Below the pieces are notes generated by a model. The model made no database searches. It was given only the letters and a program-made list of their open reading frames with translations, and had not been told where the DNA came from. From Candidatus Altarchaeum sp. (GTDB taxonomy: Archaea > Altiarchaeota > Altiarchaeia > Altiarchaeales > Altiarchaeaceae), in contig JAGWDQ010000044.1 of assembly GCA_018260615.1 (NCBI GenBank), positions 20,467 to 84,466 on the forward strand: DNA of 64,000 nucleotides, read 5' to 3'. This document shows, one piece after another, positions 3,552 through 52,651 of this stretch. A program made the translations under genes and the position numbers. Position 1 is the stretch's first letter; each line of letters starts with the position of its first letter.

Positions 3552-3613
3552 ATGGAAACACTGCTTCCAAAACCAAAAACGCGGGGAAAAATTTCCGTTG
3601 AAGAAAGTAAATG
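3552..3613 (+). pseudogene. Degenerate duplicate of the 5-prime end of the nitroreductase gene at 5633
   Basis: METLLPKPKTRGKISVEE versus MEITTLPEPKTKGKISFEE. Confidence 0.8.
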
Positions 3614-3703
3614 AGTATTTTTCCTGAATTTTTAACATTATTCTTTTAAACTAAATAATTTCCTAATTTACTAATATAAAATTTATTTATCAATATAGTA
3701 AAA

Positions 3704-4978
3704 ATGCAAATCAAAGAAATAAAAATAGAAAACTTTAAAGGAATATCTTATTTGAAGTTTTCTCCAAAAAAAATAAACTTAATTGTAGGAAGGAACAATA
3801 CTGGCAAAACCAGCGTTTTGGAAGCAATTGATTTGTTATTTAATCCTGAAAATATAGTGCAAATGTATGGTGAACATCTTTCGGATATAATTCATACAGA
3901 GACCGAATATTCAGAACTTGTAGCGAAGATAGGTAAAAGCAAAAAGAAATTAAGGATATCAAAATCATACAAAAGCGAAGTGATTTACCAATTCAAGAAA
4001 GACGTTACTGGGGCATTTATTAGGTCATTAAACAAATTTTTTGCTCTTATTAACCTTCCTGAAAACATCATAGATACAGAAGAAATCAGACACAAATTAG
4101 AAAACAAAATGGATGAAGCAATAACTCCTGAGATAATAGGCATCATATCAAAAAAGAGTGTGTGTCTCTTAAAAGACAGCGAAGATAAAACAGTAAGGTA
4201 TCACTTGCCATTTTCAGAATATTCTCGAATTTCTCGCATTTTACTTCCTGTGTCGCTCGAGATTTTCGAACAAATATCTAAACAGGGTACAAAGTCGTTG
4301 AATGAAAAGGTTTTGTCATATGACGAGGTTTTGTCAGTTATAAATGCCAATATGTTTGAGATGTTCTCACTTTTTGAACATCCCACAAAAATTTCGGGAG
4401 GGAAAAATGTAGTTTTAATAAAAGATTTATCTGGTGTGAAATTTGAACTGGAAGAAAAAGACGCAGAAATGAAAAGGAAAATTAGGAATATAGAATCCAT
4501 TATAAAAGAGCATAATTTGATTGAAAATTTAGAAAGATTGGATTTTGACTATGTTACATTTAAAGATAAAAATGAAAAATTAAGTTTTGTTCCATTTTCT
4601 TTTTTAGGTGATGGTTTTAAAGTAATGGTTGGCTTGCTGTGGCATATTTCCTCACCAAATATGGAGAATAAAATTGTCCTGCTTGATGAGCCGGAAACCC
4701 ACATGCATCCTGGTTATATTCTGGAATTAATAAAGTTCCTTATCAAATTTTCAGATAAACTAAACATCCGGTTTTTCATAACGACTCATAGCTGGGACTT
4801 TCTTGATTTGTTGCTTGACAAGGATAATTTTTCACAAGAAGATCAAAAATATTTGGAAAAGGACTTATTGTTGTTAAGAATGGATAAATTAGATGATTCT
4901 ACTATTCCGACCATTTCGGACTATAAAGATGCCAAATATGCAAAGGACAAGCTTTTCCTGGATTTAAGAGGAATTTAA
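3704..4978 (+). CDS. ABC-type ATPase (AAA_15/AAA_21, OLD/AbiEii-like)
   Basis: NFKGI, GRNNTGKTS Walker A, LGDG signature, LLDEPETHMHP Walker B/D-loop, ITTHS H-loop. Confidence 0.88.
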   Translation: MQIKEIKIENFKGISYLKFSPKKINLIVGRNNTGKTSVLEAIDLLFNPENIVQMYGEHLSDIIHTETEYSELVAKIGKSKKKLRISKSYKSEVIYQFKKDVTGAFIRSLNKFFALINLPENIIDTEEIRHKLENKMDEAITPEIIGIISKKSVCLLKDSEDKTVRYHLPFSEYSRISRILLPVSLEIFEQISKQGTKSLNEKVLSYDEVLSVINANMFEMFSLFEHPTKISGGKNVVLIKDLSGVKFELEEKDAEMKRKIRNIESIIKEHNLIENLERLDFDYVTFKDKNEKLSFVPFSFLGDGFKVMVGLLWHISSPNMENKIVLLDEPETHMHPGYILELIKFLIKFSDKLNIRFFITTHSWDFLDLLLDKDNFSQEDQKYLEKDLLLLRMDKLDDSTIPTISDYKDAKYAKDKLFLDLRGI

Positions 4979-4980
4979 AA

Positions 4981-5631
4981 ATGAAGAGGATAATCATTTG
5001 TGAAGGAAAACATGATAGTATTTTCTTACGCGCACTATTTCCCAAAATTGGCATTCCTGATAAAGATATAGAAATATTTGATCAGGGGGAGCGTGATAAA
5101 AAGGAAGATTTGAGAAATATAGAAACAAAAATAGTCGGTAAATTTCTCAGCCCTTACGGACCTTACAGTTCTTGTAAAATTTTGGTAAAGTCAGAAGAGG
5201 GAAAGGGTAACGCGATTCATCTGTTTGCAGAATATTTAACAACATGGATACAAAACTTTGAAACATTTTTGATGCTGGACTTAGATACTTCTCTTTATAA
5301 ACAAAACAAGTCGGGTAAAAGCAGGGAGAAAAAAACAAGAATTGAAAGAATGTTAAATAAATTAAAAGAGATGATAAAAAACAAACATGGAAATTTTGAA
5401 ATAGAGTGTGAAGATATAAAAGATAGTGAATTGTTGGTAAGAAAATGTTATCTAAAAGATAAAAACGGCAACCAACGAGTAGGAAGCCCATTTTATCTAA
5501 TTTTGTTTGTTCATTCGTTAGAAGAAGAAGCTAACAGGACAGTCCCCTCTGATAATGTTGATATTGAAGGTAAAATATCCAAACTTGTTGAACTGCCCGA
5601 TATTCAAGACACATTTTCGTCATTATTTTAA
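4981..5631 (+). CDS. TOPRIM-like partner of the ATPase (DUF3226-like)
   Basis: N-terminal ICEGKHD and later LDLD (DxD) motif; starts 2 bp after the ATPase stop. Confidence 0.6.
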   Translation: MKRIIICEGKHDSIFLRALFPKIGIPDKDIEIFDQGERDKKEDLRNIETKIVGKFLSPYGPYSSCKILVKSEEGKGNAIHLFAEYLTTWIQNFETFLMLDLDTSLYKQNKSGKSREKKTRIERMLNKLKEMIKNKHGNFEIECEDIKDSELLVRKCYLKDKNGNQRVGSPFYLILFVHSLEEEANRTVPSDNVDIEGKISKLVELPDIQDTFSSLF

Positions 5632-5632
5632 A

Positions 5633-6205
5633 ATGGAAATCACAACACTTCCGGAACCAAAAACAAAAGGAAAAATTTCGTTTGAAGAAGCAATATTTAA
5701 AAGGAAGTCGCACAGGAAATTTACGGCTGAAAATTTAAGCACGGATGAAATTTCACAGTTATTATGGGCTGCTTACGGAAGGAACAAAGACCGCAAAGTT
5801 GTCCCGTCGGCAGGGGCAACATATCCCTTTGAAATTTATATAAATTTAAGCGATGGAATCTATAAGTATGAAAGTGACAGGCATAAAATTTTAAAGGTTG
5901 TTGAGGGAAACAAAAGTGAATTATTATATTATGCGGCATTACATCAAGAGTGCGTAAAAAATGCGAAAGCAACAATTATTCTCGCTGTCAATTACGAAAA
6001 AATTAAGGTAAGATACGGAGACAGAAGCATTAGATATACACACTTTGAGGCAGGTCATATTGCCCAGAATATTTGTCTGCAGGCGGAAGCATTAAATTTG
6101 GGAAGTGTATGTATCGGTGCGTTTGATGAAGAAAAGGTTGCGAAAATAATAAATTTAGATGAAAATTTAAAAGCAATTTACATGATTTGTGTGAGTAAAA
6201 TTTAA
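5633..6205 (+). CDS. SagB/ThcOx-family nitroreductase
   Basis: KRKSHRKF, VPSAGATYP, EAGHIAQN, SVCIGAFD; start moved to ATG 5633 because the ORF-track start lies inside the upstream gene. Confidence 0.9.
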   Translation: MEITTLPEPKTKGKISFEEAIFKRKSHRKFTAENLSTDEISQLLWAAYGRNKDRKVVPSAGATYPFEIYINLSDGIYKYESDRHKILKVVEGNKSELLYYAALHQECVKNAKATIILAVNYEKIKVRYGDRSIRYTHFEAGHIAQNICLQAEALNLGSVCIGAFDEEKVAKIINLDENLKAIYMICVSKI

Positions 6206-23580: not shown

Positions 23581-23642
23581 ATTGAATCAATATGCTCTGA
23601 TAAATTTAAATTTTAACATTAAATTTTAACACAAATAAAATT

Positions 23643-33589: not shown

Positions 33590-33616
33590 ATAGTAGTAAA
33601 ATACAGATATGATAAA

Positions 33617-33753
33617 ATGGAAATATCCAATTTCAAAAAGAACGGAAATATTGTAACATTCACCGTAAAGGGTATGGAAATTAACTTTTCTTTTCTTTAA
33701 AAAAGAAAAGAAAACACTACGAAAAGAAAAAAAATTTAAAATAAAAATTTAAT
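33617..33753 (+). repeat. 59-bp duplicate of the rpoD start followed by a T/A-tract hairpin element
   Basis: 33617-33675 matches 33754-33812; hairpin ttttcttttcttt-aaa-aaagaaaagaaaa. Confidence 0.9.
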
Positions 33754-34335
33754 ATGGACATATCAAACTTCAAAAAGAACGGAAATATTGTAACATTCAC
33801 CGTAAAGGGTATAAACACAGCAATGGCAAATGCTATTCGCAGAGCAATAATTACAAATGTTCCGATAGCTGCAATAGAAAAGGTAACAATTGATAAGAAT
33901 TCATCTGCGCTGGCTGATGAGATACTTGCTCACAGATTGGGATTAATACCTTTCAAAACGGATATAAAAAATTTTATAGATACAAATGTTTCATTAGATG
34001 TTATAAATGATTCGGACAAATTAAAAACCATCTATACAAGGGATTTGAAATCGAGCAATCCGGATATTATTCCTGTTTATGACAACATGCCAATAGTAAA
34101 ACTCTCAAAGGGACAACAAATAAAACTTGAAGCGACAGTAGAGCTGGGGAAAGGCAGGGAGCATGTAAAATGGCAGGGCGGTCTGGCAAGTTACGAAATT
34201 AACGAAGAAAATAAATTTAACTTTTTTGTGGAATCATTCATGCAATTAGATGCCGATGAATTAATCAGTGCGGCATGTGACGAATTAATTAAAGAAAACG
34301 AACAATTCAGGAACTTTGTTTCAACAATAAAATAA
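33754..34335 (+). CDS. rpoD: RNA polymerase subunit D (Rpo3), short form without the ferredoxin-like insert
   Basis: ANAIRRAII, NSSALADEILAHRLGLIP, G.EHVKWQ. Confidence 0.93.
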   Translation: MDISNFKKNGNIVTFTVKGINTAMANAIRRAIITNVPIAAIEKVTIDKNSSALADEILAHRLGLIPFKTDIKNFIDTNVSLDVINDSDKLKTIYTRDLKSSNPDIIPVYDNMPIVKLSKGQQIKLEATVELGKGREHVKWQGGLASYEINEENKFNFFVESFMQLDADELISAACDELIKENEQFRNFVSTIK

Positions 34336-34380: not shown

Positions 34381-34746
34381 ATGGCAAGAATATTTAAAAA
34401 TCCAAATCCGTTAAGGGTCAAACTTGTAGATGATTTAAAAAATTTTAATACGGATAAGAATTACGGAATTTGGAATAAAGTGATTAAGGAATTGTCAAGG
34501 TCAAGGAAAAACAGGAGAAATGTAAATTTATGGAAAATAAATAAAAATACAAATGAAGGGGATGTTATTGTCGTGCCGGGAAAAGTGCTTGGGCATGGAG
34601 AAATCGGACATAAAGTTACAATTGCAGCGTTTGAATTTTCAGAAGGTGTAAAGCAAAAAGTAACAAACAATAATGTGCGACTAATGTCAATTTATGAATT
34701 GTTTAATGAAAATCCAAAAGGAAGTAATATTAAAATAATCGGTTAA
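34381..34746 (+). CDS. rpl18e: 50S ribosomal protein L18e
   Basis: VNLWKINK, VVPGKVLG, NPKGS. Confidence 0.95.
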   Translation: MARIFKNPNPLRVKLVDDLKNFNTDKNYGIWNKVIKELSRSRKNRRNVNLWKINKNTNEGDVIVVPGKVLGHGEIGHKVTIAAFEFSEGVKQKVTNNNVRLMSIYELFNENPKGSNIKIIG

Positions 34747-34865
34747 AAATGATTGTAAATGCTGAAGGGCAAAGGTTGAACTTTTCTTTTTTAGAAAAAA
34801 AGAAAACATTCAGAAAAGAAAAAACACAAAAATAAATTTATAAAATTTATATATTAATATGATTT
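34742..34865 (+). repeat. 30-bp duplicate of the rpl13 start followed by the same hairpin element as before rpoD
   Basis: 34742-34771 matches 34866-34895 with 1 mismatch; then aacttttctttttt..aaaaaaagaaaacattcagaaaagaaaaaa. Confidence 0.88.
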
Positions 34866-34872
34866 GTTAAAA

Positions 34873-35355
34873 ATGATTGTAAATGCTGAAGGACAGGTTC
34901 TCGGAAGAATGGCATCTTTTGTGGCAAAAAGGGTCTTGAGGGGAGATCAGGTAATAGTAGTTAATGCTGAAAAGGCATTGATTTCAGGAACAAAAACAGG
35001 AATCCAGACAGAAGCAGACAGAAGATTAGGTATAAGAAACTGGGGAAACCCAAAAAAAGGCCCTTATATGATGAAACGGCCTGATAATTTTGTGAGAAGG
35101 GCCATAAGAGGAATGTTGCCATATAACAAAAACAGATACGGAGCGAGAGGTAGAGAAGCGTTCAAAGATGTAATTGTATTTATGGGCGTTCCGAAAAAAG
35201 AGATAGAAAAATACGACAAAACTTTCAGGCCCGCAAATATTAATGAAATTTCCGATAAAAACATACAAAAAAAACCACTGAGAAAATACGTGTATGTATC
35301 TGAATTTTGTAAAATTTTGGGCAATAAAACAACAATAAAACAAAATACTATTTAA
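34873..35355 (+). CDS. rpl13: 50S ribosomal protein L13
   Basis: VLGRMAS, NAEKA, RRAIRGMLP. Confidence 0.94.
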   Translation: MIVNAEGQVLGRMASFVAKRVLRGDQVIVVNAEKALISGTKTGIQTEADRRLGIRNWGNPKKGPYMMKRPDNFVRRAIRGMLPYNKNRYGARGREAFKDVIVFMGVPKKEIEKYDKTFRPANINEISDKNIQKKPLRKYVYVSEFCKILGNKTTIKQNTI

Positions 35356-37561: not shown

Positions 37562-37795
37562 TCACCTCACTTACGCTCACTTCGTTCCACTCACTTCGTT
37601 CGTGTCTTTTCAAAACCTCACCTCACTTCGTTCGGAGATTTTCAAAACTCTGCGTTTTGAAAACTGCGGTTTTGAAAATCGTGTATTTTCGGGACAAGCC
37701 CGAAAATCGTTCGGAGATTCTCAAACAAGTTTGAAAATCACCTCGTTTTACTCGGAGATTTTCAAAATCTGCGATTTTGAAAATAGTGCAATTTA
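37562..37795. repeat. Largest REP-like cluster in the window
   Basis: Several cacctcacttcgttcg and ttttcaaaa..ttttgaaaa units in tandem. Confidence 0.88.
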
Positions 37796-37907
37796 AACAA
37801 AAGATATATATAATTAAGTTTTAAAATAAATTAATAAAAGAATAACAAAGCGAAACCACTCTAAATTAAAAATTAATTAAAAATTTTAATTAAAATTATA
37901 AAAAAAT

Positions 37908-38492
37908 ATGTTCCTCACCCATTCCCTTATAAAGCCAGACACCGTTGAACTGCGAAAGTATCAGGAAGCGATAATCGCAACATCGGCAAATAAAAATACA
38001 ATAGTTGTACTTCCGACGGGACTTGGAAAAACGCTGATTGCCGTAATTGTTGCCGCACATCGGCTGGATAAATTTAATGGCTCAAAGGTTCTGTTTTTAG
38101 CACCTACCAAGCCGCTTGCAGTACAGCATGCAGAGACATTCAGACAAATTTTAAATTTAAAGGACGATGAAATTTGTGTATTCACATCGGCAACACCGAC
38201 AAATAAGCGAAACGACTTATGGGAGAAATCACGGGTTATTCTGGCAACGCCTCAAACGATAGACAACGAAATAATGAAAAATTTAGATTTGAGCAATGTT
38301 TCTTTTCTGGTTTTTGATGAAGCACACAGAGCAGTCGGAAATTATGCTTACGGGTTCATTGCAGGCGAATATATGAAAAAAGCAAAGCATCCGCTGATTA
38401 TGGGATTGAGTGCTTCTCCGTCATCTGATATTGAGAAAATTTCGGAAATTTCAAAAAATTTGTTCATACAGTCGGTTGAAATAAGCACTTAA
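37908..38492 (+). pseudogene. Truncated duplicate of the hef 5-prime region (194 aa)
   Basis: 37908-38485 nearly identical to 40801-41378. Confidence 0.92.
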
Positions 38493-38651
38493 ACATAATT
38501 TTAAACAGCGAAAAATTTGATTTAACCTTATCAAGAAAATTTTTAAACAAAATCAAATTTTTAACGTTCAAAAATTTATTTAATTTAAATACTTCTAATC
38601 TAAATTAATTTACAACAATTTACAACATGTCCAATGTTTAATTTATTTAAA

Positions 38652-39167
38652 ATGAAAAACACAAATAAAATTTTATTAGGGGTTGGAATAAGTTGTATTT
38701 TTGTTATACTAATGGCTTTTGTAATGGCTACTGATAATGGAATTGAGAAAGCGTTAAACAAAACAACAAACTAGAGTAGTAAATATGATTCAATTGCTGT
38801 CCAGGCAAATAATTCAATTCTTAACGAAGTAAAAAACAAAACCTTGTTTGATAAACCCTTAAATAACTCATACTTGCCCAAAATCGGAAAAAAGGGGATA
38901 AATTTTTTAGTTATAGGAGACAAAGTAGTATATTATGATGTGAAAGGTGGAACTTCTAAAAAATACACATTAAATGAAAGTGAATGGAAAGATTTAATAA
39001 ATATCAAAAAAAGAATGAATAATTCAATTGATGTGTTGGTAATTAATGATTTTGTTATTAAAAAAAATCATGGACTTATTGAAAATAACATAACTTATGT
39101 GGAAATAGATAAAAATAAAATATATAAGAAGGTAACTGCTAATATAAGCGCAAAAATTGAAAAATAA
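38652..39167 (+). pseudogene. Secreted/membrane-anchored protein interrupted by one in-frame TAG (38772-38774)
   Basis: ATG 38652 with a signal-like hydrophobic stretch is in frame with ORF 38844-39167. Confidence 0.7.
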
Positions 39168-39181
39168 CCTAAAACTCAAAA

Positions 39182-39664
39182 ATGTCAAGAAAAATAAAAA
39201 TTTTTGATTTCAAAAAAGCGTGGAATGATAGAATAGAAAGGAAAAATATAATTATGTTTATTTTGGCGGTAGCGTTAGGATTAGTTTTAATATCATTAGC
39301 CATAACATCCAAATGTATGTCGCTATTATTCTCATTTGGATATTTAGGAGATCTTGGCAAAAATTGTGATGTTCGTATACCTATTGATTTTGTTATCCTT
39401 GTGTTATTAGTACTAATCTATGAATTTATATTTACAGAACATACAAGAATTATCGGAGTATGGTTTGCAAATTTACAAGAGAGGTGGGGAGGAAATATGA
39501 TTGTATTTAGTTATTTTGCGAGTGTTGGTTTTTTTGGAGGTATCTTGCAATACTTGATGCCCCATTCTACGATACCTGTGTTGGTATTTGGTGCGCTCTT
39601 TATGATCGCTTTCATTTATTCCCTTATTCCAATTTCATGGCTCAAAAAAATTAAAAAAATATAA
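39182..39664 (+). CDS. Small 4-TM membrane protein
   Basis: 160 aa, four hydrophobic segments. Confidence 0.65.
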   Translation: MSRKIKIFDFKKAWNDRIERKNIIMFILAVALGLVLISLAITSKCMSLLFSFGYLGDLGKNCDVRIPIDFVILVLLVLIYEFIFTEHTRIIGVWFANLQERWGGNMIVFSYFASVGFFGGILQYLMPHSTIPVLVFGALFMIAFIYSLIPISWLKKIKKI

Positions 39665-39843
39665 AACAGCAAAAATGGAGATTAAAATATTTTCACTGTC
39701 TGAAAATAGCAATAAAGAAATAAAAAACAAAACAATAGACATGTTGCGAAATAATTTTCAATTTATTGCTACAATATATTCATAATAATTTCAATAAACC
39801 ATATAAACTATTTCACAACAACTCTATTATTTTACAGTAAAAA

Positions 39844-40566
39844 ATGAATAAAAAACAAACAAAAATTTTATTGCTCCTCATAACAATCATTATTGGAGTA
39901 GTAATAATAAGTGGATGCGTAAACAATGAAGAAAATAAAATCGGCGAAGAAGGAATGAATGAAACAAACGACTATTATCCATTAGAAGTGGGAAATCAAT
40001 GGGTGTTTGCGGTGAAAAAGGAAACTGAAGGGGAAAATCCTCAAAATAGTATAACAACAGTACAAATCACTAAAAAAGAAATGATAAACAATATAGAAAC
40101 TTTTGTTATAGAATATGAGACGGACAATAACACATCCCAAATAGAATATGTTAATAAAGAATATGGAAAAATTTTATGCTGTAGGCGAATATCTCAAGGA
40201 AAGGAACAAAATTATTATCCTCTACAATTATGGGCTGATTTTTCATCACTTAAAAAGGGAAAGAAATGGAAATGGGCTGACAATACAATAAATGTAGAGT
40301 TAGAAGGAGAAATACTTGGAAAAGACGTAATAACCGTTCCTGCAGGAACATTTGAGACATATATAGTAAAAATCACAACAAGTCCGAAAGATAATGTTAG
40401 AGGAATTGCAAACGTAAAGTGGATGGGGTGGTTCGCCAAAAATATTGGAGTTGTAAAAGAAGATGCACATATTTATGCTAATGTTTCCATTAATAATAAT
40501 AAGCGACTAATAGTTAACACTCATATAATAGCGGAACTAAAAAGTTATAACATTTCAAAAAAATAA
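39844..40566 (+). CDS. Lipoprotein with a beta-rich domain (YYPL..GNQW, ITVPAGTF motifs)
   Basis: IISGC lipobox-like signal. Confidence 0.75.
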   Translation: MNKKQTKILLLLITIIIGVVIISGCVNNEENKIGEEGMNETNDYYPLEVGNQWVFAVKKETEGENPQNSITTVQITKKEMINNIETFVIEYETDNNTSQIEYVNKEYGKILCCRRISQGKEQNYYPLQLWADFSSLKKGKKWKWADNTINVELEGEILGKDVITVPAGTFETYIVKITTSPKDNVRGIANVKWMGWFAKNIGVVKEDAHIYANVSINNNKRLIVNTHIIAELKSYNISKK

Positions 40567-40800
40567 AATGAAAAATAATGTTTTGTTTATATTTTCTTTT
40601 TGTGCCTATTTTCCTGATTTTTGTATGAGATTGGGTAAGATGATTTTTTAAATTTTTATACCTTCTCAAATAATATTTTTCACTGAAAAGTAAAGCCAAA
40701 TAAGTCAATTTACCATGTTTTATTGAGTGGATATGAATTTTTTAAACAAAAAACTAATTCTTAAAATATTTTAACATACTGTTGTTCATTACTTATTATT

Positions 40801-43089
40801 ATGTTCCTCACACACCCCCTCATAAAGCCGGACACCGTTGAACTGCGAAAGTATCAGGAAGCGATAATCGCAACATCGGCAAATAAAAATACAATAGTTG
40901 TACTTCCGACGGGACTTGGAAAAACGCTGATTGCCGTAATTGTTGCCGCACATCGGCTGGATAAATTTAATGGCTCAAAGGTTCTGTTTTTAGCACCTAC
41001 CAAGCCGCTTGCAGTACAGCATGCAGAGACATTCAGACAAATTTTAAATTTAAAGGACGATGAAATTTGTGTATTCACATCGGCAACACCGACAAATAAG
41101 CGAAACGACTTATGGGAGAAATCACGGGTTATTCTGGCAACGCCTCAAACGATAGACAACGAAATAATGAAAAATTTAGATTTGAGCAATGTTTCTTTTC
41201 TGGTTTTTGATGAAGCACACAGAGCAGTCGGAAATTATGCTTACGGGTTCATTGCAGGCGAATATATGAAAAAAGCAAAGCATCCGCTGATTATGGGATT
41301 GAGTGCTTCTCCGTCATCTGATATTGAGAAAATTTCGGAAATTTCAAAAAATCTGTTCATACAGTCGGTTGAGATAAGGACCGAAAATGACAGCGATGTC
41401 CGGGAGTATATAATGAAAGTGGAGGAAGAATGGGTAAAGGTTGAACTGCCTGCGGACTTTAAAGGAATAAGGGATAAACTTGCGGACTTGCTTAAATTTT
41501 ACCTGAAACAGTTAAAGGATATGAATTACATTGATACGATTAATTTGACAAATATTAACAAAAAGGACTTATTGGCTGTTCAGGAAAGAATAAGGGGCGA
41601 CATATTGAGCGGAAACGGAAATTTCGATGCGGCATCGCTTATTGCAAAAATTATAAAACTTCATTATGCTCTTGAACTTATAGAGACGCAGGGAATTTTT
41701 ACTTTATACAGGTATCTTGAACGGCTGAATCTGCAAAAAGGTAAAGGAGTAAAAGAGATGTTTTCCGATGAGCGTATGAAGGAAATCTGTGAAAATGTTA
41801 AAATTTTGTATGATGCAAAAACAGACCATCCGAAGTTAGATGCAATCTTAAAAATTTTAAAGGAAGAGTTGGGTAGTTCGGAAGACAGAAAAAACAGGAA
41901 AATTTTGCTGTTCACTCAATACCGGGACACTGCCGAAAAAATTTATGAAATTTTAACGAACAACAACATAAAATGCGAGAAATTTATAGGTCAGGCAAGG
42001 AGAGATAATGACAAAGGAATGACGCAAAAAGAGCAAATTGCATCACTTGAGAAATTCAAAAATAATACATTTAATGTGCTGATTGCAACTTCTGTCGCAG
42101 AAGAAGGCCTGGATATTCCCAAGGTTGATATTGTAATATTTTATGAGCCGATTCCAAGCAGTATAAGAGCAATACAAAGGAGGGGAAGAACGGGAAGAAT
42201 GTATGAAGGAAAGGTGATAATTTTGATGACAAGGGGGACGAGGGACGAAGGATATTACTGGAGTGCGGTTTCAAAGGAAAGAAAGATGAAGGAATATCTG
42301 ACAAAATTCCAGATTTCAGGAAAAGAAGGCATTGAAAAAGAAGTACAAAAAAGACATGGGCAGCAAAGTATTTTATTGTACGACGATAATAATAAAGAGG
42401 ATAACAAAGATAATGAAGAAAACAATAACAAAGATAAAAACGAAAGACCTAAAATTTATGCCGATATACGGGAGCGAAACACGGAAATTTTTAAAATTTT
42501 AAATGAAAAGGCAGATGTCATAGTCAGGCAGTTAGAGGTTGGGGACTATATATTGAGCGAAAATGTATGTGTTGAGAGAAAGACAGCCGGTGATTTCTTA
42601 CAGTCAATTGTTGATAGACGACTACTTGAACAGGCACAAAATTTAGTGAGAAATTTTGAAATTCCGATAATTATCATAGAAGGTGAATTAAATTTGTCTT
42701 CAAGAAATATTCATCCGAATGCAGTCCGGGGAATGCTCGCCGCAATAGCAACTGACTTTAAAATTTCCATCATTCCGACAAAAGACGAAAATGATACCGC
42801 CGAAATGCTGTTCATAATCGCAAAAAGAGAGCAGGAAGAAAAAAGAAATCCGGTTGCTTTAATCGGTGAAAAGAGGGCTTACACTCTTGCCGAGAGACAG
42901 CACTTAATTGCCGAATCACTTCCAAATGTGTCTGCTGTGATTGCCGAACGGCTGCTTGAACGTTTTAAGACGATAAAAAAAATTGCAAATGCTGGCATTA
43001 AGGAATTAATAAAAGTTGAAGGAATCGGATTAAAAAAGGCAGATGAAATTTTTAAGGTTACACATTCGGAGTATAAAAAGGAGAAATAA
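40801..43089 (+). CDS. hef: Hef (FANCM-like helicase plus ERCC4 nuclease)
   Basis: LPTGLGKT, FDEAHRA, QRRGRTGR, GDY..VERKT..D, C-terminal HhH. Confidence 0.95.
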   Translation: MFLTHPLIKPDTVELRKYQEAIIATSANKNTIVVLPTGLGKTLIAVIVAAHRLDKFNGSKVLFLAPTKPLAVQHAETFRQILNLKDDEICVFTSATPTNKRNDLWEKSRVILATPQTIDNEIMKNLDLSNVSFLVFDEAHRAVGNYAYGFIAGEYMKKAKHPLIMGLSASPSSDIEKISEISKNLFIQSVEIRTENDSDVREYIMKVEEEWVKVELPADFKGIRDKLADLLKFYLKQLKDMNYIDTINLTNINKKDLLAVQERIRGDILSGNGNFDAASLIAKIIKLHYALELIETQGIFTLYRYLERLNLQKGKGVKEMFSDERMKEICENVKILYDAKTDHPKLDAILKILKEELGSSEDRKNRKILLFTQYRDTAEKIYEILTNNNIKCEKFIGQARRDNDKGMTQKEQIASLEKFKNNTFNVLIATSVAEEGLDIPKVDIVIFYEPIPSSIRAIQRRGRTGRMYEGKVIILMTRGTRDEGYYWSAVSKERKMKEYLTKFQISGKEGIEKEVQKRHGQQSILLYDDNNKEDNKDNEENNNKDKNERPKIYADIRERNTEIFKILNEKADVIVRQLEVGDYILSENVCVERKTAGDFLQSIVDRRLLEQAQNLVRNFEIPIIIIEGELNLSSRNIHPNAVRGMLAAIATDFKISIIPTKDENDTAEMLFIIAKREQEEKRNPVALIGEKRAYTLAERQHLIAESLPNVSAVIAERLLERFKTIKKIANAGIKELIKVEGIGLKKADEIFKVTHSEYKKEK

Positions 43090-43107
43090 ACAAAATGTTC
43101 ACACAAT

Positions 43108-43248
43108 CACCTCACTTACGCTCACTTCGTTCGTGTATTTTCAAATCTCTGTGATTTGAAAATCGTTCGGAGATTTTCAAAATCTGTTGATTTTGAAAAA
43201 GACACAAAGGAGTAATTCTCTGTGGCTTATTGGCTTGGTGTGAGGGAG
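43108..43248. repeat. REP-like cluster
   Basis: cacctcacttacgctcacttcgttcg, ttttcaaa..ttttgaaaa and a partial gacacaaag module. Confidence 0.82.
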
Positions 43249-43326: not shown

Positions 43327-44559
43327 ATGGATTCAAAAATACAATTATACAAGATGTCTCTTGATGAGAGGCGGAAAACGATTAAGGAACTTGCAAATTT
43401 AACTGATGAAGAAATCGCTTACTATAATGGAAATCTCACAAACATTGCAGACAAGATGGTTGAAAATGTAATCGGAACTTATGAAATGCCGCTGGGAATA
43501 GCAACAAATTTTTTAATAAACGGGAATGACTATTTAATTCCGATGGCAATAGAAGAGGCATCTGTCATTGCGGCTGCCTCAAATGCTGCAAAAATTGCAC
43601 GGGTTAAAGGCGGATTTACAGCACATAGTGATGAGCCGGTAATGCTCGGACAAATTCAGGTAATAAACATAGATGATGTTGAAGTAGCACAGATTGAAAT
43701 TTTAAGGCATAAAAAAGAAATAATGGAGATGGCCAATACCTGCGATCCGACATTAGTAAAATTCGGAGGAGGGTGCAAAGACATTGAAGTGCGGAAAATC
43801 GGTGATGATATGTTAGTTGTGCATTTACTTGTTGATTGCAGGGATGCTATGGGAGCAAATGCCGTAAATACGATGGCAGAAAAAGTTAAGGAAAAAATAA
43901 AAGAACTAACAGAGGGGGATGTTTTATTAAAAATTATTTCAAATCTGGCAATATACAGAAAGGCATACTCTTATGCAATATTTGATAAAGAGGCATTAGG
44001 CGGAGAGGATGTTGTTAACAAAATTTTAATGGCTTACGAGTTTGCAGAAAGTGATATTTTCAGATGTGCTACACACAACAAAGGCATAATGAACGGAATT
44101 GATGCTCTGATAATGGCAACGGGAAATGATTTCAGGGCGATTGAAGCGGGGGCACACAGTTATGCTGCATTGAACGGATACGCTCCGTTAACACATTACA
44201 GCAAAGATAAAGACGGAAATTTAGTCGGAAGCATTGAAATTCCGATGGCTGTTGGAATAATCGGCGGAGCAACAAGGACTCATCCGCAGGCAAAAACAAA
44301 TTTAAAAATTTTAAATGTGAAGTCGGCAGGGGAACTTGCAGAAGTTGCGGCATCTCTTGGCCTGGCACAAAATTTAGCAGCATTGAAAGCACTGTCAACA
44401 GAGGGAATTCAGAGAGGACACATGGAATTACACGCGAGAAATATTGCAATAAGTGCGGGAGTTCCGTCTGAAATTGCCGACAAGGTTGCAGAAATTATGA
44501 TAAAGAATAAGAAAATCAACACAGAATACGCAAAAGAAATTTTTGAAAAAATAAAATAA
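43327..44559 (+). CDS. mvaA: Class II HMG-CoA reductase
   Basis: ENVIG, EEASV, DAMGAN, HNKGIMNG, GLAQN, GIQRGHM. Confidence 0.93.
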   Translation: MDSKIQLYKMSLDERRKTIKELANLTDEEIAYYNGNLTNIADKMVENVIGTYEMPLGIATNFLINGNDYLIPMAIEEASVIAAASNAAKIARVKGGFTAHSDEPVMLGQIQVINIDDVEVAQIEILRHKKEIMEMANTCDPTLVKFGGGCKDIEVRKIGDDMLVVHLLVDCRDAMGANAVNTMAEKVKEKIKELTEGDVLLKIISNLAIYRKAYSYAIFDKEALGGEDVVNKILMAYEFAESDIFRCATHNKGIMNGIDALIMATGNDFRAIEAGAHSYAALNGYAPLTHYSKDKDGNLVGSIEIPMAVGIIGGATRTHPQAKTNLKILNVKSAGELAEVAASLGLAQNLAALKALSTEGIQRGHMELHARNIAISAGVPSEIADKVAEIMIKNKKINTEYAKEIFEKIK

Positions 44560-44562
44560 AAA

Positions 44563-47374: not shown

Positions 47375-47487
47375 CTCGTTCTGAATTTTTTAAAAATTTA
47401 CAGTGGCAAAGTCAGTTATTTCAAAATTTTTAATATTTTATAATCAGTTGTCCTTATAGCCGGAATCCTACCTGCCCCCTTTATTAA
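47375..47487 (-). pseudogene. Degenerate duplicate of the mqnE 3-prime end and downstream flank
   Basis: Aligns with ~48140-48251 (taatcagttg.ccttatagccggaatcct). Confidence 0.8.
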
Positions 47488-47660
47488 TGCCTATTTTTAT
47501 ATCCAAACATAATTAACAATAGAGTTGTTGCTTTTTAAGAGATTTGAGGGTAAATTTTAGTAAAAATTGAAGGTAAAAATTTTATTAAGCAGCATGTCTA
47601 ATATCTGAAATTTAATTATTTATTTAATATCTGAAATTTAATTAATAAATAAAATTTAAA

Positions 47661-47975
47661 ATGGAATACGAGGTAAAAAGATTTGGGGTTGTGTCTGTGT
47701 TGAAGATTGGGATTGCGATGGGGGTTGTAATAGGAGTATTTTGTGGATTGTTCTATGGTTTGTTTATGGGTTTGATTTTTAGCAGCATTCCTGCAAGCAT
47801 GGGCGGAAGCTCCTCTATGGCAGGTTTGGGACTTGTAGGAGGAATGGTTTTGGGAATTGTCGGAGGTGCGATATACGGGGTATTTATAGGAATATTTTAT
47901 GCCATAGGTGCCATCATATATAACTTCGCCGCAGGAAAAATCGGAGGAATTAAAGTTGAAATAAAAGAACAATAG
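47661..47975 (+). CDS. Small Gly-rich membrane protein (DUF3566-like)
   Basis: VKRFGVVSVLK N-terminus, IYN..A..IGGIKVE C-terminus. Confidence 0.7.
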   Translation: MEYEVKRFGVVSVLKIGIAMGVVIGVFCGLFYGLFMGLIFSSIPASMGGSSSMAGLGLVGGMVLGIVGGAIYGVFIGIFYAIGAIIYNFAAGKIGGIKVEIKEQ

Positions 47976-48041
47976 ATGAAATTTAATTCAGAAACGACAG
48001 AAAATCATAAATAAATATTTTTCTCTTTTTTAAATTTTTTA

Positions 48042-48165
48042 TCGTACAGGAAAGTTCGTTTTATTTTTGGTCCCTCACACCAAGACACAGAGACACAAAG
48101 GGCAATGTTGCTCTGTGACTTTGTGGCTTTGTGTGAGTATTCTTCTGATTTTTTTAAAAATTCGT
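48042..48165. repeat. REP-like acacagagacacaaag module
   Basis: Homologous to 31205-31295 and 53745-53850. Confidence 0.85.
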
Positions 48166-48179
48166 CGTGGCAAACTCTT

Positions 48180-49316
48180 TTATTCCAAAATTTTTACTAT
48201 TTTGTAATCAGTTGTTCTTATAGCCGGAATCCTGCCTGCTCCTTTTATTAAATTTTTCAGTTCCTCAACATTCGCACTTCTTTCCGAAATTTTTCCCGCT
48301 GCGTAAGTTATATTTTCCTTTTCAATGGTTCCGTCAAAATCATTTGCCCCGTAATGAAGTGCTACCTGTGCCAAATTTTTCCCGAGCATAACCCAATATG
48401 ATCTTATATTGTCAAAATTATCAAGCAATATTCGTGATACTGCAATAACCTTTAAATCATCTATCCCGCTTACAGGCATCGTTACAAGTCCTTTGTTATA
48501 TAAATTTGTGCCTTTCGGATGAAAACTTAAAGGAATAAAACCCAGAAATCCGTTTGTCTTTTCCTGCAAATCCCTGAGCTTTAATATATGCATGACTCTG
48601 TCCTCATTGCTTTCAATATGTCCGTAAAGCATTGTCGCATTGCTCCTTATTCCTAATTTGTGTGCGGTTTCCATGACATTGAGCCATTCATCGCTTTTCA
48701 GTTTATTCGGACAAATTTTACTTCTTATTTCATCGTTTAAAATTTCTGCCCCTCCGCCGGGTATAAAATTTAATCCCGCATCTTTAAAACGTTCCAAAAT
48801 TTCTTTAATGCTGCTTTTATTCCTCTTTGCTATGAAAAAAATTTCTGTTGCCGTAAATGCTTTAATTGCCAAATCCGGAAAATTTTTCCTTATCTCTTTC
48901 AGTATGTTCTCGTAATATTCAACAGGAATTTCCGGGTTTAAACTTCCGACGATATGAACCTCGCTTATATTGCTTATTTGCCGTGCCTTTTTGACCATCT
49001 CTAAAATTTTATCAATACTTATAACATAGCCATCTTTGTCTTCCTGAGATTTGTAATACGCACAGAGTTCGCATTTGCTTACGCAGATATTTGTATAATT
49101 TATGTGTAAATTTAAAACGAATGAGACAATATCTCCGACCTTGTTTTTTCTTATTTTATCTGCTGCTGTGCCTAAATTTAAGATGTCGTTTGAATTCATT
49201 AAGGCAATTCCGTCTTTTTCGGAAATTTTGTCTCCTTTTACTGCTCGTTCAAGGATTTCGGAAATTTCGGAGTTAAATTTTTCGTTGGTAAATTTCATTT
49301 TGATTTCTTTATTCAA
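48180..49316 (-). CDS. mqnE: Radical SAM aminofutalosine synthase-like (CofH family)
   Basis: INYTNICVSKCELC, PGGGAEI, NATMLYGH, IRSYWVMLG, GANDFDGT. Confidence 0.75.
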   Translation of the reverse strand: MNKEIKMKFTNEKFNSEISEILERAVKGDKISEKDGIALMNSNDILNLGTAADKIRKNKVGDIVSFVLNLHINYTNICVSKCELCAYYKSQEDKDGYVISIDKILEMVKKARQISNISEVHIVGSLNPEIPVEYYENILKEIRKNFPDLAIKAFTATEIFFIAKRNKSSIKEILERFKDAGLNFIPGGGAEILNDEIRSKICPNKLKSDEWLNVMETAHKLGIRSNATMLYGHIESNEDRVMHILKLRDLQEKTNGFLGFIPLSFHPKGTNLYNKGLVTMPVSGIDDLKVIAVSRILLDNFDNIRSYWVMLGKNLAQVALHYGANDFDGTIEKENITYAAGKISERSANVEELKNLIKGAGRIPAIRTTDYKIVKILE

Positions 49317-49397: not shown

Positions 49398-49640
49398 ATG
49401 GCTAAAAATAATTTAATGCAATTTAAGAAATGTAATTGTCCTCAAGAGTATTGGGAAGAAATTGTAGTTGACCATGACGAAAATTTTGATGACAGGTCTG
49501 TAATATATTTCCATTGTGATTTTTGTGGCGAGGATCATGCAATAGTTGATTTTTATACGGGAGAAATACTTTATCCAAAACAAAATGAGGAAAACAAATC
49601 CAAAGTTTCAACACTTAAAAAATCAGCACTTAAAAAATGA
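49398..49640 (+). CDS. Small Cys-containing hypothetical protein
   Basis: CNC and CDFC motifs; its stop overlaps the ATG of the truncated mqnC copy. Confidence 0.6.
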   Translation: MAKNNLMQFKKCNCPQEYWEEIVVDHDENFDDRSVIYFHCDFCGEDHAIVDFYTGEILYPKQNEENKSKVSTLKKSALKK

Positions 49641-50382
49641 TAAATGATAAATCAACTGAGGATTTAATAAACCAATGCATTAACGGTTATAAATTTTCCT
49701 TTGAAGAAGCAAGGGACTTGCTAAATTTTGACCTAAACACACTTGGCTTGATTGCAGATGAACTAAAAAATAATAAAGAAATAATCCGATAACATTTGTT
49801 AAGGTTAAGGTTATAATTATTATAAGGACATAATTATCAATCATAAAATTAAAAACCAAAATGATGGGCAGGGGACGGATATAAACCACATGAAATAAGT
49901 GGATAAAAGTAAAGGACTAAAAGAAACATGTAAAAAACCAAAGTATGAAAAAAACAGCATTTATGGCACATAGTTTTGAGGGTGGTGAAGTTGTGAAGAA
50001 TGTTGTAAATAGAGGTATTAATAATTACGATGGATATTGAAAAATCAATTGATGAATTAATAAATAAATGTATTAACGGTTATAAATTTTCCTTTGAAGA
50101 AGCAAAGGACTTACTAAATTTTGACTTAAACACGCTTGGCTTAATTGCAGATGAACTAATGAATAATAAAGAAATAATATGATAATTTATTAATTGTAAT
50201 GTTGTAATTATTAATCATAAAATTAAAAACCAAAATGGCGGGCAGGGGACGGATATAAACCACATGAAATACGTGGATAAAAGCAAAGGACTAAAAGACA
50301 TGTAAAAAACCAAAGTATGAAAAAAACAGCATTTATAGCACACAGTTTTGAAGATGATGAATCTGTGAAAAAAATTGTAAAT
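49637..50382 (+). repeat. Two tandem units of [mqnC 5-prime fragment + spacer + TIR-gene 5-prime]
   Basis: mqnC-like mini-ORFs from ATG 49637 and 50030; TIR-gene start copy at 49945; ~170-bp spacer/start blocks near 49840 and 50214 almost identical. Confidence 0.9.
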
Positions 50383-51462
50383 GGATTTAAAGATATTTTT
50401 AGTTGTTATTTTGACATCGTTACTGGTGAAGAACCAAGTTCGAATAAATCTATTTCCAAGAAGGTTGAAGGTATGATAAAAGAGCAGGATGTGTTTATAG
50501 GTATTGTAACAAAAAGAAAAGACAGCGAATGGAGCACATCAGCATGGGTTCTAAACGAAGCAGTAACAGCAATGAATTTTAGCAAGCCAATTATCCTTTT
50601 GGTTGAAAAAGGTATAAATGAAAAAAATATGGGGATGGTAGGTAATGCAAGAGAATATATTTATTTTGATAGTAATGATATTTTTGAATATATTCCAAAA
50701 GTTATTAAAATTATTGAAGAGATAAATAAGCCATCTCCGGAAAATAATCTTCGTTTTCCTTACAAATTCAGAGAAGTAATAAACAGGATTACAATATACT
50801 CCGAAGGTAGGGGAATTTATGATAGAAGATGTATGCTGGAAGTACTTTCTGAAGATTTTACCAGGGTCGTTCATGCGATAGGACTAAGTGGTTGTACGCC
50901 AAAAACTACTGTTTTAAAACCTTTTAAAGATATCAAAACTACAAAAATCTCCGACAGATATGTGAAAGATCAATCTTTGTTTTGGAAGATATTTGAACCT
51001 AGGGACCTTGTTTTAAATCCCAAAAGGGTTTTATACGGGGGTGAATGGAAATCTTTGGATATTCCTGATGCAGAGGGATTTAATTTTTCTCTTAATTTCG
51101 GAAAATTTCCAATCGGAAGTACAATAGAATATTCATACGGATTCTCCTGTAAAGACATGTTTCCCCTGAACAAATATCAACTTAAGAATGGACAGCTTTA
51201 TATGGGGAAGACAAATAAACTTTCGGACTGGACGGAAGTAATAAGTGAAGTTGATAAGCTTGTGTTTGTCATTCAATTTGACCATGATTATAAACTAAAA
51301 GGATCGCCTGAGCTAATAATAACAACACAAGATGGAGATAAAATAAAACACAGTTATAAATTTGAAAAGGAAACATCACTTTTTTACGAGACATACAAGG
51401 TAAGCATAGGAAGAACAACTCCTGGATTCAAATATGTTGTTGAATGGAAACCTGAAAATTGA
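50317..51462 (+). CDS. TIR-domain protein with an unknown beta-rich C-terminal domain
   Basis: AFIAHSF, DVFIGIVT, SAWVLNEA (putative catalytic Glu), KPIILLVE, EYIYFD. Confidence 0.75.
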   Translation: MKKTAFIAHSFEDDESVKKIVNGFKDIFSCYFDIVTGEEPSSNKSISKKVEGMIKEQDVFIGIVTKRKDSEWSTSAWVLNEAVTAMNFSKPIILLVEKGINEKNMGMVGNAREYIYFDSNDIFEYIPKVIKIIEEINKPSPENNLRFPYKFREVINRITIYSEGRGIYDRRCMLEVLSEDFTRVVHAIGLSGCTPKTTVLKPFKDIKTTKISDRYVKDQSLFWKIFEPRDLVLNPKRVLYGGEWKSLDIPDAEGFNFSLNFGKFPIGSTIEYSYGFSCKDMFPLNKYQLKNGQLYMGKTNKLSDWTEVISEVDKLVFVIQFDHDYKLKGSPELIITTQDGDKIKHSYKFEKETSLFYETYKVSIGRTTPGFKYVVEWKPEN

Positions 51463-51553
51463 TATTCAAACATATTTTTTAGTGTTTTGATGACATAGTA
51501 AATACTATTTTTAAAAGATATATTAATAAAAGTAGATAAATGTAGGGATAATT

Positions 51554-52651
51554 ATGATGGATACTAAAAAATCAGTTGAAGAGATAATAAATCAATGCAT
51601 TAACGGCCATAAATTTTCCTTTGAAGAAGCAAAGGACTTGCTAAATTTTGACTTAAACACGCTTGGCTTAATTGCAGATGAAATAAGGAATAAATTTTGT
51701 GGCAATACCGTAACCTTTGTCTGCGACACAACTATAAACTACACAAATATTTGTTCAGGCAAATGTAAATTTTGTGCATTTTACCGAAACAAATCCGCAG
51801 GCGACGCTTATGTATTAACCATTGACGAAATTCTGCAAAAAACTGAAAAAGCAGGAAATTTGGGAGCGACACAGGTTTTGCTTCAGGGCGGATTAAATAA
51901 AGATATTTCATTAAGTTATTACGAAACCATTATTAAAGCAGTTAAACAAAAATTTCCCGATGTTCAGAGACACTTTTTTTCTGCTGCTGAAATTTACTTT
52001 ATCGCAAAAAACAACAATTTATCTGTTGATGAGGTGCTGGAAAGATTCAAAGAGTGCGGATTGCAGAGTTTCGGAGGCGGAGGTGCTGAAATTTTAGTTA
52101 CTCAAATAAGGAAAGAAATTTCGCCGGATAAAATTTCCGCCGAAGAATGGAAAGATGTTATTATGAAGGCACATAAAACCGGAATTAAAACATCTGCAAC
52201 TATGGTTTATGGATTTGGCGAAAGTAAAGAAGACCGTCTAAGGCATTTGTTATTTTTAAGGGACATTCAGTATGAAACGAATGGATTTACTGCATTTATT
52301 CCGTGGAGTTTTCAGCCCGAAAATACTGCTTTGGGGCAAAATAAATTTTATAAATTTCCGGCTGGGGGAATTGATTACCTTGAAATAATTGCATTGGCGA
52401 GGATAATATTCAATAAATTTTTAAGGAACATTCAGGCATCCTGGCTGACAGAAGGCGAAAAGCTCGCACAGATTGCTTTATTTTACGGAGCAAATGATTT
52501 CAGCGGAACGATAATAGAAGAAAATGTCGTAAAAGAGGCGGGAATAAAATTTAGCGGAAAGACAAAAGAAGAAATGATAAATTTAATTCAGCAAGTTGGA
52601 AGAATTCCCGCACAAAGAGATACATTTTACAATGTTCTGAAAGTGTTTTGA
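51554..52651 (+). CDS. mqnC: Radical SAM cyclic dehypoxanthine futalosine synthase-like (CofH family)
   Basis: INYTNICSGKCKFCAF, LLQGG, SATMVYG, FIPWSFQP, IQASW, EENV. Confidence 0.78.
   Translation: MMDTKKSVEEIINQCINGHKFSFEEAKDLLNFDLNTLGLIADEIRNKFCGNTVTFVCDTTINYTNICSGKCKFCAFYRNKSAGDAYVLTIDEILQKTEKAGNLGATQVLLQGGLNKDISLSYYETIIKAVKQKFPDVQRHFFSAAEIYFIAKNNNLSVDEVLERFKECGLQSFGGGGAEILVTQIRKEISPDKISAEEWKDVIMKAHKTGIKTSATMVYGFGESKEDRLRHLLFLRDIQYETNGFTAFIPWSFQPENTALGQNKFYKFPAGGIDYLEIIALARIIFNKFLRNIQASWLTEGEKLAQIALFYGANDFSGTIIEENVVKEAGIKFSGKTKEEMINLIQQVGRIPAQRDTFYNVLKVF

Follow-up and report, generated by a model that had tools for sequence, protein, structure and literature searches.

The phenomenon closest to the one reported here is the insertion with long target duplication (ILTD) of bacterial restriction-modification (RM) complexes (Nobusato et al. 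2000, Gene 259:99; Furuta, Abe and Kobayashi 2010, NAR 38:2428, PMC2853133). ILTD inserts are a few kb long, carry no mobility genes and are flanked by direct repeats of variable length, from more than 30 to ~400 bp. The repeats are single-copy in genomes with an empty site and often span a translation start or stop, such that the target gene stays intact; the units can also amplify through them. ILTD was described for RM systems of bacteria, mostly in naturally competent hosts, with no archaeal case passing the screen and the mechanism left open (PMC2853133). Here, we analyzed a 64,000-nt stretch of a Candidatus Altarchaeum bin (contig C44:20467-84466; GCA_018260615.1, JAGWDQ010000044.1), hereafter the window, in which six host gene ends, namely: those of a nitroreductase gene, rpoD, rpl13, hef, mqnE and mqnC, each occur as a truncated and an intact copy with other DNA, the cargo, lodged between them. 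The cargo is either a gene-carrying cassette or, at rpoD and rpl13, a short hairpin element referred to as the mini-element.

Like ILTD inserts, those seen here have repeats longer than 30 bp that are single-copy at empty sites and vary in length without an att core, and no integrase or transposase was found in the cargo proteins scanned. They differ in occurring in an archaeon, at ~95 loci per 2.2 Mb, and in a cargo made up mostly of non-RM defence genes, surface proteins and a non-coding hairpin element. Moreover, one repeat boundary lies within ~10 nt of a start or stop codon, and some of the replaced gene ends are foreign alleles. As far as we have found, gene gain that looks integrase-free has not been described at such density or in archaea. 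Knowledge of ILTD goes back to 2000 but is limited to a few bacterial RM loci, and the ~95 events seen here make its mechanism testable: they span recent ones with repeats 98-100% identical, ancient ones shared between species, and ones that are polymorphic in deeply sequenced populations.

Homology-facilitated illegitimate recombination (HFIR) and Campbell integration likewise combine one homologous with one illegitimate junction, duplicate the homologous segment in the insertion type, and yield hybrid donor/recipient copies, as found here at mqnC. Classic HFIR was defined in transformation experiments and usually deletes rather than duplicates recipient DNA. Unlike in either process, the homology at the present loci can be as short as 25-35 nt or consist of start-codon context only. 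Integrase-mediated integration into gene ends also leaves an island flanked by a truncated and an intact end, with tRNA genes among its targets, but here no integrase is found in the scanned cargo, no att core is shared, repeat length varies between 20 and 630 bp, and cargo of as little as 75 nt occurs.

The six gene-end duplications had been proposed by a sequence-only reading of the window, and self-BLAST of the window recovered all of them, with repeats of 45-633 bp (Table 1). The start of mqnC is present three times (at 49612, 50005 and 51532; mutual identity 77-88%), and a 393-bp unit is repeated there in tandem (49645-50026 vs. 50038-50398, 83%). MqnE and MqnC score above their NCBIfam equivalog cut-offs, and Pfam or NCBIfam matches confirm Hef, RpoD, L18e, L13 and the nitroreductase. 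The positions that the sequence-only reading gave for the rpl13 ATGs are corrected to 34749 and 34873. Its description of the nitroreductase cargo as an ATPase and TOPRIM pair is right for the ATPase and could not be confirmed for the 216-aa partner, which has a weak DUF3226 match only. The protein it named TIR at mqnC matches that family weakly (E 3.6e-4), below the Pfam cut-off. Two further statements are borne out, namely: that the architecture is recurrent and, by Pfam and NCBIfam scans, that the cargo at the window loci is devoid of integrase or transposase domains. The 240-aa protein of the hef cargo has an N-terminal hydrophobic segment followed by Cys and is lipoprotein-like by eye. 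There are no tRNA genes in the 64-kb window.

In order to establish the ancestral state of these loci, we compared them with the corresponding regions of three genomes of the same genus (G001, G002 and G003) and with public Logan contigs, as opposed to raw reads, from the source sample (X1), a sister sample (X2) and a sample of another study (X3). The source genome (G000) comprises 2.23 Mb in 148 contigs, with 33% G+C and 87% completeness; completeness across the genus genomes is 65-87%. The Hef protein of the window shares 90% identity with its counterpart in 'Candidatus Altiarchaeales archaeon A3' and 78% with those of two Candidatus Altarchaeum metagenome-assembled genomes, and the window DNA is found in groundwater metagenomes.

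Empty alleles, which the sequence-only reading had proposed to look for, are present in all three relatives and in contigs of two other samples. In G001-G003, rpoD, rpl13, hef, mqnC, the nitroreductase gene and a further target gene, on contig C115 of G000, are uninterrupted: rpoD directly follows S11, rpl13 starts 3 nt past the rpl18e stop, hef adjoins its upstream neighbour, the nitroreductase gene lies ~60 nt from hisS, and mqnE, an 80-aa open reading frame (ORF) and mqnC lie next to each other, sharing the ATGA overlap seen in the window. The L18e/L13 and ORF80/mqnC junctions kept by the truncated copies are identical in the relatives, which supports the proposal, also made in that reading, that these copies retain the ancestral junction. 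The X3 contig, ~90% identical to the window, joins position 49623 straight to 51569. X2 contig depth is 430/11/429 over the hef cargo vs. ~2500 around it, and 2/62/66 over the TIR cargo vs. ~2300 around it, while the mini-element at rpl13 is spanned by an X2 contig. Contigs of the source sample cross cargo-repeat junctions at 38430-40860 and 50307-51638. In X1, the cargo unitig depths of 2061 and 2588 vs. ~2900-3100 for the flanks hint at presence/absence within the sample, as a hint only, given that contig depth cannot rank regions. Since the sites are empty in relatives and in other samples, the loci are insertions. Thus, the window loci are real and derived, and they are polymorphic between populations, except that for mqnE the comparison with relatives did not cleanly resolve an empty allele or the native copy. 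Several mini-element insertions have an orthologous counterpart in another species, at an identical junction of the same gene, which indicates that such structures can persist for a long time.

Genome-wide self-alignment, also suggested by the sequence-only reading, was carried out contig by contig and shows that the pattern extends throughout G000. There are 304 unique local direct-repeat pairs. Among these, 66 show a gene end in one of the copies, the gene body being directed away from the spacer, and a further 29 have a gene end called in both copies, as at hef, giving ~95 candidate loci in 2.2 Mb on crude gene calls. The repeats are 25-555 bp long, and the spacers measure between 0 and 6.9 kb. 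What is duplicated is in each case the gene end of the locus itself; no att core is common to the loci, and repeat length varies from one to the next.

To characterize the cargo, 35 cargo proteins were scanned against Pfam, NCBIfam and PADLOC, and none of them was identified as an integrase or transposase. Outside the window, the scan covered 25 proteins from 20 of the 37 kilobase-scale loci, and 8 of these proteins have no Pfam match. The families identified include a TdeIII restriction enzyme with its methylase (one locus), a Dam-type methylase (one locus; the neighbouring ORF lies outside the scan), GmrSD (one locus), AbiEii toxins (two loci), an AriA-like AAA_15 ATPase, a TIR-like protein, a PDC-S02 (YhcG/DUF1016) nuclease, a Schlafen/AlbA_2 protein, two archaeal ATPase_2 proteins, a SAM-dependent methyltransferase, a B12-binding radical SAM protein and large surface proteins (DUF7507/DUF11, CARDB, NosD). 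The kilobase-scale cargo with a family match therefore consists mostly of defence genes or surface proteins. Homologues of the TIR cassette of the window occur at four other places in G000 and at one in G002, the latter at a locus other than mqnC, and none of those inspected adjoins mqnC. The copy on contig C87 is flanked by a 35-nt duplication whose start coincides exactly with the ATG of a methyltransferase-like gene. No TIR homologues were found in two metagenome scans made for their context.

The repeats are not placed at random with respect to genes. Lack of enrichment at gene ends had been named by the sequence-only reading as an outcome that would speak against it; instead, anchoring is strong. 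Over the 66 loci with a gene end in one copy, the repeat reaches beyond the gene by a median of 7 nt at 5′ ends and of 11 nt at 3′ ends. This outer portion makes up less than 20% of the repeat in 42 of the 66 (binomial p = 1.5e-14 vs. a uniform expectation), and in 11 further loci it exceeds 80%, such that it is the other boundary that falls at the terminus. Anchoring holds for repeats that are 98-100% identical and is therefore not the result of decay of non-coding homology. At some loci, a new ATG comes from the insert, and two or three codons of the gene are lost. Selection to keep the gene intact would permit any upstream length; hence, selection alone leaves the anchoring unexplained.

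The start context of this genome is itself strong. A is found at -3, -2 and -1 in 81%, 76% and 70% of genes, respectively, and 149 of 1438 genes have TTTAAA at -6 to -1. Among 10-mers, AAATTTTAAA and AAAATTTAAA are the most frequent, with AAA(A)TTTAAA-ATG as the consensus. The tail of the mini-element, which reads GAAAAATTTAAAA, has the same motif. We considered whether the tail could act as a promoter; this was dropped, as the distance from the tail to the ATG varies from 0 to 60 nt. We also considered whether the duplication begins at the transcription start, and rejected it on the grounds that the rpl13 repeat begins 21 nt inside rpl18e and that there are cases at gene and tRNA 3′ ends.

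According to the sequence-only reading, the incoming DNA carries a replacement gene end. The comparison with relatives supports this for mqnC and C115 and, less strongly, for the nitroreductase gene, and contradicts it for the mini-elements at rpl13 and rpoD, where both copies are native. At mqnC, the upstream region and N-terminus of copy 1 (MINDKSTEDLIN) are as in relatives, while the intact gene and copy 2 share another upstream region and a homologous but differing N-terminus (MDTKKSVEEIIN). Copy 2 looks like an unrecombined donor fragment, and unit 1 is a deletion derivative, in which a TIR gene-start fragment runs up to codon 22 and there meets position -19 of the foreign region upstream of mqnC, with an AAAT microhomology at the joint. 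At C115, the left copy has a G001-type upstream region and starts with MDFQKAI (MTIQKAI in G001), and the intact copy has a new upstream region and starts with MNAIEI. The truncated nitroreductase copy (MET..LP, SVEE) is nearer to relatives than the intact one (MEITTLP, SFEE). These three cassettes came together with a foreign allele of the gene end. At hef, the left copy retains the native upstream region, and the repeats show 100% identity over codons 11-184; their differences, in 7 synonymous and 3 non-synonymous codons, are confined to the two edges. At rpl13, both copies equal the single sequence of the relatives, with drift only in the non-functional part of each copy. Since both copies are native at rpl13 and rpoD, the duplication there was made from the target itself and was not imported.

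The 75-95 nt interposed at rpoD and rpl13 are members of one family of ~85-nt structured repeats. From the 5′ end, the element consists of (GGAAAT)GAAC, a T-rich arm, an A-rich loop, a complementary A-rich arm and ACACTCCG, followed by a third A-rich arm that repeats arm 2, then GTAAAC.TTAGAAAAATTTAAAA and, last, an AT-rich tail whose length varies. G000 contains 35 nhmmer and 36 covariance-model matches, and the covariance model finds 8 in G001, 10 in G002 and 2 in G003, such that the element is present in all four genus genomes. In the hairpin, 99.5% of the cells are paired, with compensatory changes in 7 of the 12 pairs, and none of 500 shuffles reached the observed covariation score. The third arm co-varies with arms 1 and 2; stem variants include CCACC-T7 and CCGCC-T5. 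No Rfam family matches the element.

The mini-element is flanked by duplications in the same manner as the cassettes. A direct duplication abuts the element's 5′ end in 23 of the 25 full-length G000 copies, with scores of 20-164 vs. a 95th percentile of 18.6 in 300 random controls, and flanking duplications are also found for 11 of 14 copies in the relatives. The duplications vary in length from 20 to 120 bp. About 17 of the 20 assignable loci are 5′ ends of genes or tRNAs, oriented as the element, and three are 3′ ends, including a tRNA-Ala on the opposite strand. In being small, non-coding, structured and multi-copy, with compensatory stem changes and a location at gene boundaries, the element resembles MITEs (small transposable elements with inverted repeats), repetitive extragenic palindromes (REP)/BIMEs and IS200/IS605-derived palindromes; unlike MITEs and IS200/IS605, it has no terminal inverted repeats, no short fixed target-site duplication and no Y1 transposase that could be found, and its duplications are 20-120 bp long.

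Several observations were made on individual copies. In tRNA-Leu(CAG) and tRNA-Leu(TAG), the duplicated 5′ half ends exactly after anticodon position 36 and is followed by the hairpin element, and a duplicated 3′ part of tRNA-Ala lies on the other side of an element; the tRNA loci are L003 (G000:C70:9037-9503), L017 (G000:C88:17984-18431) and L009 (G000:C139:6265-6735). The tRNA-Leu(CAG) insertion is common to G000 and G002. The S11-rpoD spacer of G001 (L020/L024) contains only the third arm and AT tail, with neither hairpin nor duplication, and is either what an imprecise deletion left behind or a precursor state; right halves standing alone in a similar way are found at G000:C70:9136 and C139:6364. 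Arrays in which two or three [gene start + hairpin element] units follow one another in tandem, located at G000:C70:22193-22540, C53:64036-64268 and C87:22870-23117, show amplification through the flanking repeats.

On balance, and with modest confidence, we favour the reading that the loci are insertions with long target duplication made by one short-homology and one illegitimate junction, and spread afterwards by homologous recombination. In this scheme, DNA would be joined into the chromosome such that 20-630 bp of target, running from the host start or stop codon into the gene, comes to stand on both sides; the host gene would be whole on one side, and the cut-off copy would retain the old junction on the other. 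The insert is either a 0.6-7 kb cassette of defence or surface genes or the ~85-nt structured hairpin element. One junction would form by short homology, presumably that of the homologous gene end for imports from another Altiarchaeum lineage and, for de novo events, that of the near-universal start context AAATTTAAA-ATG mimicked by the element tail. The other would be illegitimate, formed by template switching, microhomology-mediated end joining or HFIR. The anchoring at starts and stops, together with the matching tail, points to this combination of junctions. As a proposed second layer, a finished cassette with its flanking repeats may then spread between lineages by ordinary homologous recombination, which would explain the foreign and mosaic gene ends. 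Homologous import would not suffice by itself: the mini-element stands at more than 20 genes and tRNAs and the same TIR cassette at unrelated loci, hence a de novo target-duplicating step is needed besides it.

Several points weigh against this proposal. The joining step itself is deduced from its products. The fairly sharp 5′ end of the mini-element (GGAAATGAAC or GAAC) is more in keeping with a defined molecule or an enzyme than with free template switching, and with the genome at 87% completeness a transposase could be missing from it. The edge differences at hef are explained equally well by mosaic import or by later gene conversion, and with a core of 520 bp in perfect identity in that repeat, short contigs are compatible with an empty chromosome plus a separate circle. 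The genome-wide gene calls are crude, being the first ATG of long ORFs, which could shrink the lengths outside the gene by some bases. Finally, a clustering of mismatches at the anchored boundary, suggested by hef, rpoD and C115, was rejected as a general feature, the genome-wide values being 0.073 vs. 0.066 (not significant).

More tentatively, it is possible that Altiarchaeum harbours a recombinase-independent form of mobility in which the context of a translation start or stop serves as the landing site, with the element and the cassettes copying themselves by template switching or microhomology joining. If true, such a route would supply the missing mechanism of ILTD together with a natural system in which to study it, the duplication serving to keep the host gene alive. 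The minimal 85-nt element shows the same behaviour as the cassettes, and the anchoring along with a tail that matches the start context narrows the possible mechanisms. The arrangement also suggests that defence genes can spread in a compact archaeal genome as scattered single cassettes, without islands, integrases or transposons. On a practical level, the cassettes leave short upstream ORFs and gene fragments that are prone to miscalling by annotation pipelines.

The first alternative, which is the model of the sequence-only reading, is a strict Campbell-type import, in which each cassette lies beside the orthologous gene in a donor lineage, is circularised along with that gene end and enters through a single homologous crossover in the recipient gene end. 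The left copies are native and the right copies foreign-type at mqnC, C115 and the nitroreductase gene; the second mqnC copy resembles an unrecombined donor fragment; the homology at hef starts at the coding start; and the 216-aa partner gene stops 1 nt ahead of the intact nitroreductase ATG, as expected of a native donor operon. Nevertheless, we regard it as unlikely. Such import leaves unexplained both the 85-nt element, which sits at more than 20 different genes and tRNAs with native-type duplications, and the TIR cassette at unrelated loci, and some of the crossovers would need homology as short as 25-35 nt. No circle-type ('goes back') joint across a cargo occurs among the joints listed for the Logan contigs, and no donor arrangement was found, the hef cargo gene not being beside hef in 30 relatives.

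The defined 5′ end of the mini-element, its conserved and covarying hairpin, its genus-wide distribution and the one orientation that it takes with respect to the gene at ~17 of the 20 assignable loci would instead be expected of an enzyme that acts in trans on the element, and perhaps on the cassettes, by making widely staggered cuts that give long, variable duplications, with selection keeping the insertions that restore the gene. Also in favour of an enzyme, nine TnpB genes and one Cas1 gene are present in G000; among the families searched, candidate enzymes are otherwise few, with one tyrosine recombinase, and none of these genes lies in a scanned cargo. However, selection would again allow any upstream reach, yet the boundary lies 0-12 nt from the ATG or stop, and neutral intergenic insertions with a duplication are few. 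Neither a Y1 transposase (Y1_Tnp) nor a reverse transcriptase was found in G000, and the element has one hairpin and a third direct arm with no terminal inverted repeats. We know of no prokaryotic transposase that gives variable duplications of 20-120 bp. An enzyme of this kind is accordingly quite improbable. As a separate observation, one of the nine TnpB-like (Cas12f1-like_TNB) genes, at C109:24667, lies ~600 nt from a variant-B hairpin element.

With its defined 5′ end subject to small truncations, its A/T-rich 3′ tail of variable length, its variable-length duplications and its AT-rich targets, the mini-element also resembles the products of LINE/SINE retroposition and could be seen as a SINE-like retroelement inserted by target-primed reverse transcription. 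Unlike for LINE/SINE, no reverse transcriptase is detected in G000 or in most of the relatives that carry the element: a search of G000 and 30 relatives for RVT_1 (PF00078) found none in G000, G001 and G003 and one match in G002, such that one of the four genus genomes has the enzyme and all four have the element. This and the opposite orientation of the cases at tRNA and gene 3′ ends make such an origin very unlikely. It is just as improbable that slippage first duplicated the gene end in tandem and unrelated DNA landed between the copies later: spacers of 0-40 nt do exist, and tandem units are amplified at mqnC and at C70:22214-22532, but two independent events would be needed at ~95 loci, and both the recurrence of the same element family in the gap and the foreign-allele gene ends would be left unexplained.

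An assembly artefact, be it strain-chimeric paths or unmerged contig overlaps, is suggested by the perfect 520-bp core at hef and by the third copy of a tRNA-Leu(TAG) 5′ half described below, but its likelihood is very low in view of the lack of N gaps in the window and in the 95 genome-wide loci, the divergence of most repeats (70-97% identity), which makes their assembly unambiguous, the junction-spanning contigs of X1 and X2, and the presence of the architecture, orthologous insertions included, in independent assemblies of three other species. The third tRNA-Leu(TAG) copy is false: positions 315-324 of L017 (G000:C88) are a 10-N scaffold gap with an identical 55-nt overlap on either side, typical of an unmerged overlap, and this is the sole artefact of its kind found near an element.

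Table 1. Parts of the six duplicated gene ends, in window coordinates, with the direct-repeat pairs recovered by self-BLAST of the window
Feature	Coordinates	Strand	Description	Repeat pair (identity)
Truncated nitroreductase start	3520..3605	+	ATG 3552, 20 codons then stop; native-type N-terminus METLLP...SVEE	3520-3605 vs. 5601-5689 (70%)
Nitroreductase cargo	3704..5631	+	AAA_15/AAA_21 (AriA/AbiLi/PDC-M38A-like) ATPase 3704-4978; 216-aa partner 4981-5631	
Intact nitroreductase	5601..6205	+	ATG 5633; N-terminus MEITTLP...SFEE, diverged from relatives	
Truncated rpoD start	33613..33675	+	ATG 33617; reading frame ends within hairpin element	33613-33675 vs. 33750-33812 (94%)
Hairpin mini-element at rpoD	33676..33749	+	arm1-loop-arm2-arm3-AT tail	
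Intact rpoD	33750..34335	+	ATG 33754	
rpl18e end and truncated rpl13 start	34727..34771	+	ATG 34749; junction ancestral, as in relatives	34727-34771 vs. 34851-34895 (89%)
Hairpin mini-element at rpl13	34772..34850	+	long AT-rich tail	
Second 45-nt target copy and intact rpl13	34851..35355	+	ATG 34873	
Truncated hef	37861..38493	+	ATG 37908, 194 codons, DEAD/ResIII part only; upstream matches native upstream in relative L021	37861-38493 vs. 40754-41386, 633 bp (95%)
hef cargo	38494..40753	+	107-aa ORF, 160-aa multi-pass membrane protein, 240-aa DUF3108-like protein	
Intact hef	40754..43089	+	ATG 40801; upstream region novel	
Truncated mqnE copy	47379..47487	-	final ~72 nt of mqnE and ~45 nt downstream	47379-47487 vs. 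48143-48251 (86%)
mqnE cargo	47488..48142	.	104-aa membrane protein 47661-47975 (DUF3566-like); REP-like cluster 48016-48160	
Intact mqnE	48143..49316	-	gene 48180-49316	
Truncated mqnC copy 1	49612..49799	+	ATG 49637, ATGA overlap with 80-aa ORF; native upstream and N-terminus MINDKSTEDLIN	
Spacer X1 and TIR gene-start fragment	49800..50029	+	22-codon fragment 49921-50026	
Truncated mqnC copy 2	50005..50166	+	ATG 50030; upstream region and N-terminus of foreign type; 3′ part decayed, in common with copy 1	
mqnC cargo	50167..51531	+	spacer X2, 381-aa TIR-like gene 50317-51462, 3′ spacer	
Intact mqnC	51532..52651	+	ATG 51554; foreign allele (MDTKKSVEEIIN) over the upstream region and first ~12 codons; native sequence from ~codon 15	

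In Table 1, spacers X1 and X2 are parts of the mqnC locus and are distinct from the samples of the same names.

Other repeats were seen in the window and elsewhere in the genome. Gene boundaries are also where a second family of dispersed, REP-like repeats (CTCACTTCGTTCGGAGATTTTCAAAA...TTTTGAAAA) clusters, and in the window it occupies positions 66-203, 37571-37790, 43094-43199, 48016-48160 and 53697-53882. Elsewhere in the genome, it is often nested at a fixed place in several mini-elements, between arm 2 and arm 3, and at the TIR locus on C87 it also forms the cargo end beside the ATG.

In addition, the window contains an inverted pair of homologous segments of ~300 bp, one at 18018-18592 within radC (minus strand) and the other at 44544-45263 at the lonB 5′ end; the segment is tandemly repeated within each gene and resembles an in-frame module put into two unrelated genes. 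Two neighbouring paralogous genes at 21010-23439 share ~79% identity across 1.15 kb, and 23425-23624 is a third upstream repeat, which is partial. Finally, short tandem arrays are found between genes at 63745-63824, with five 16-nt units (ATACAAACATAACACA), and at 1839-1940, with three 34-nt units.

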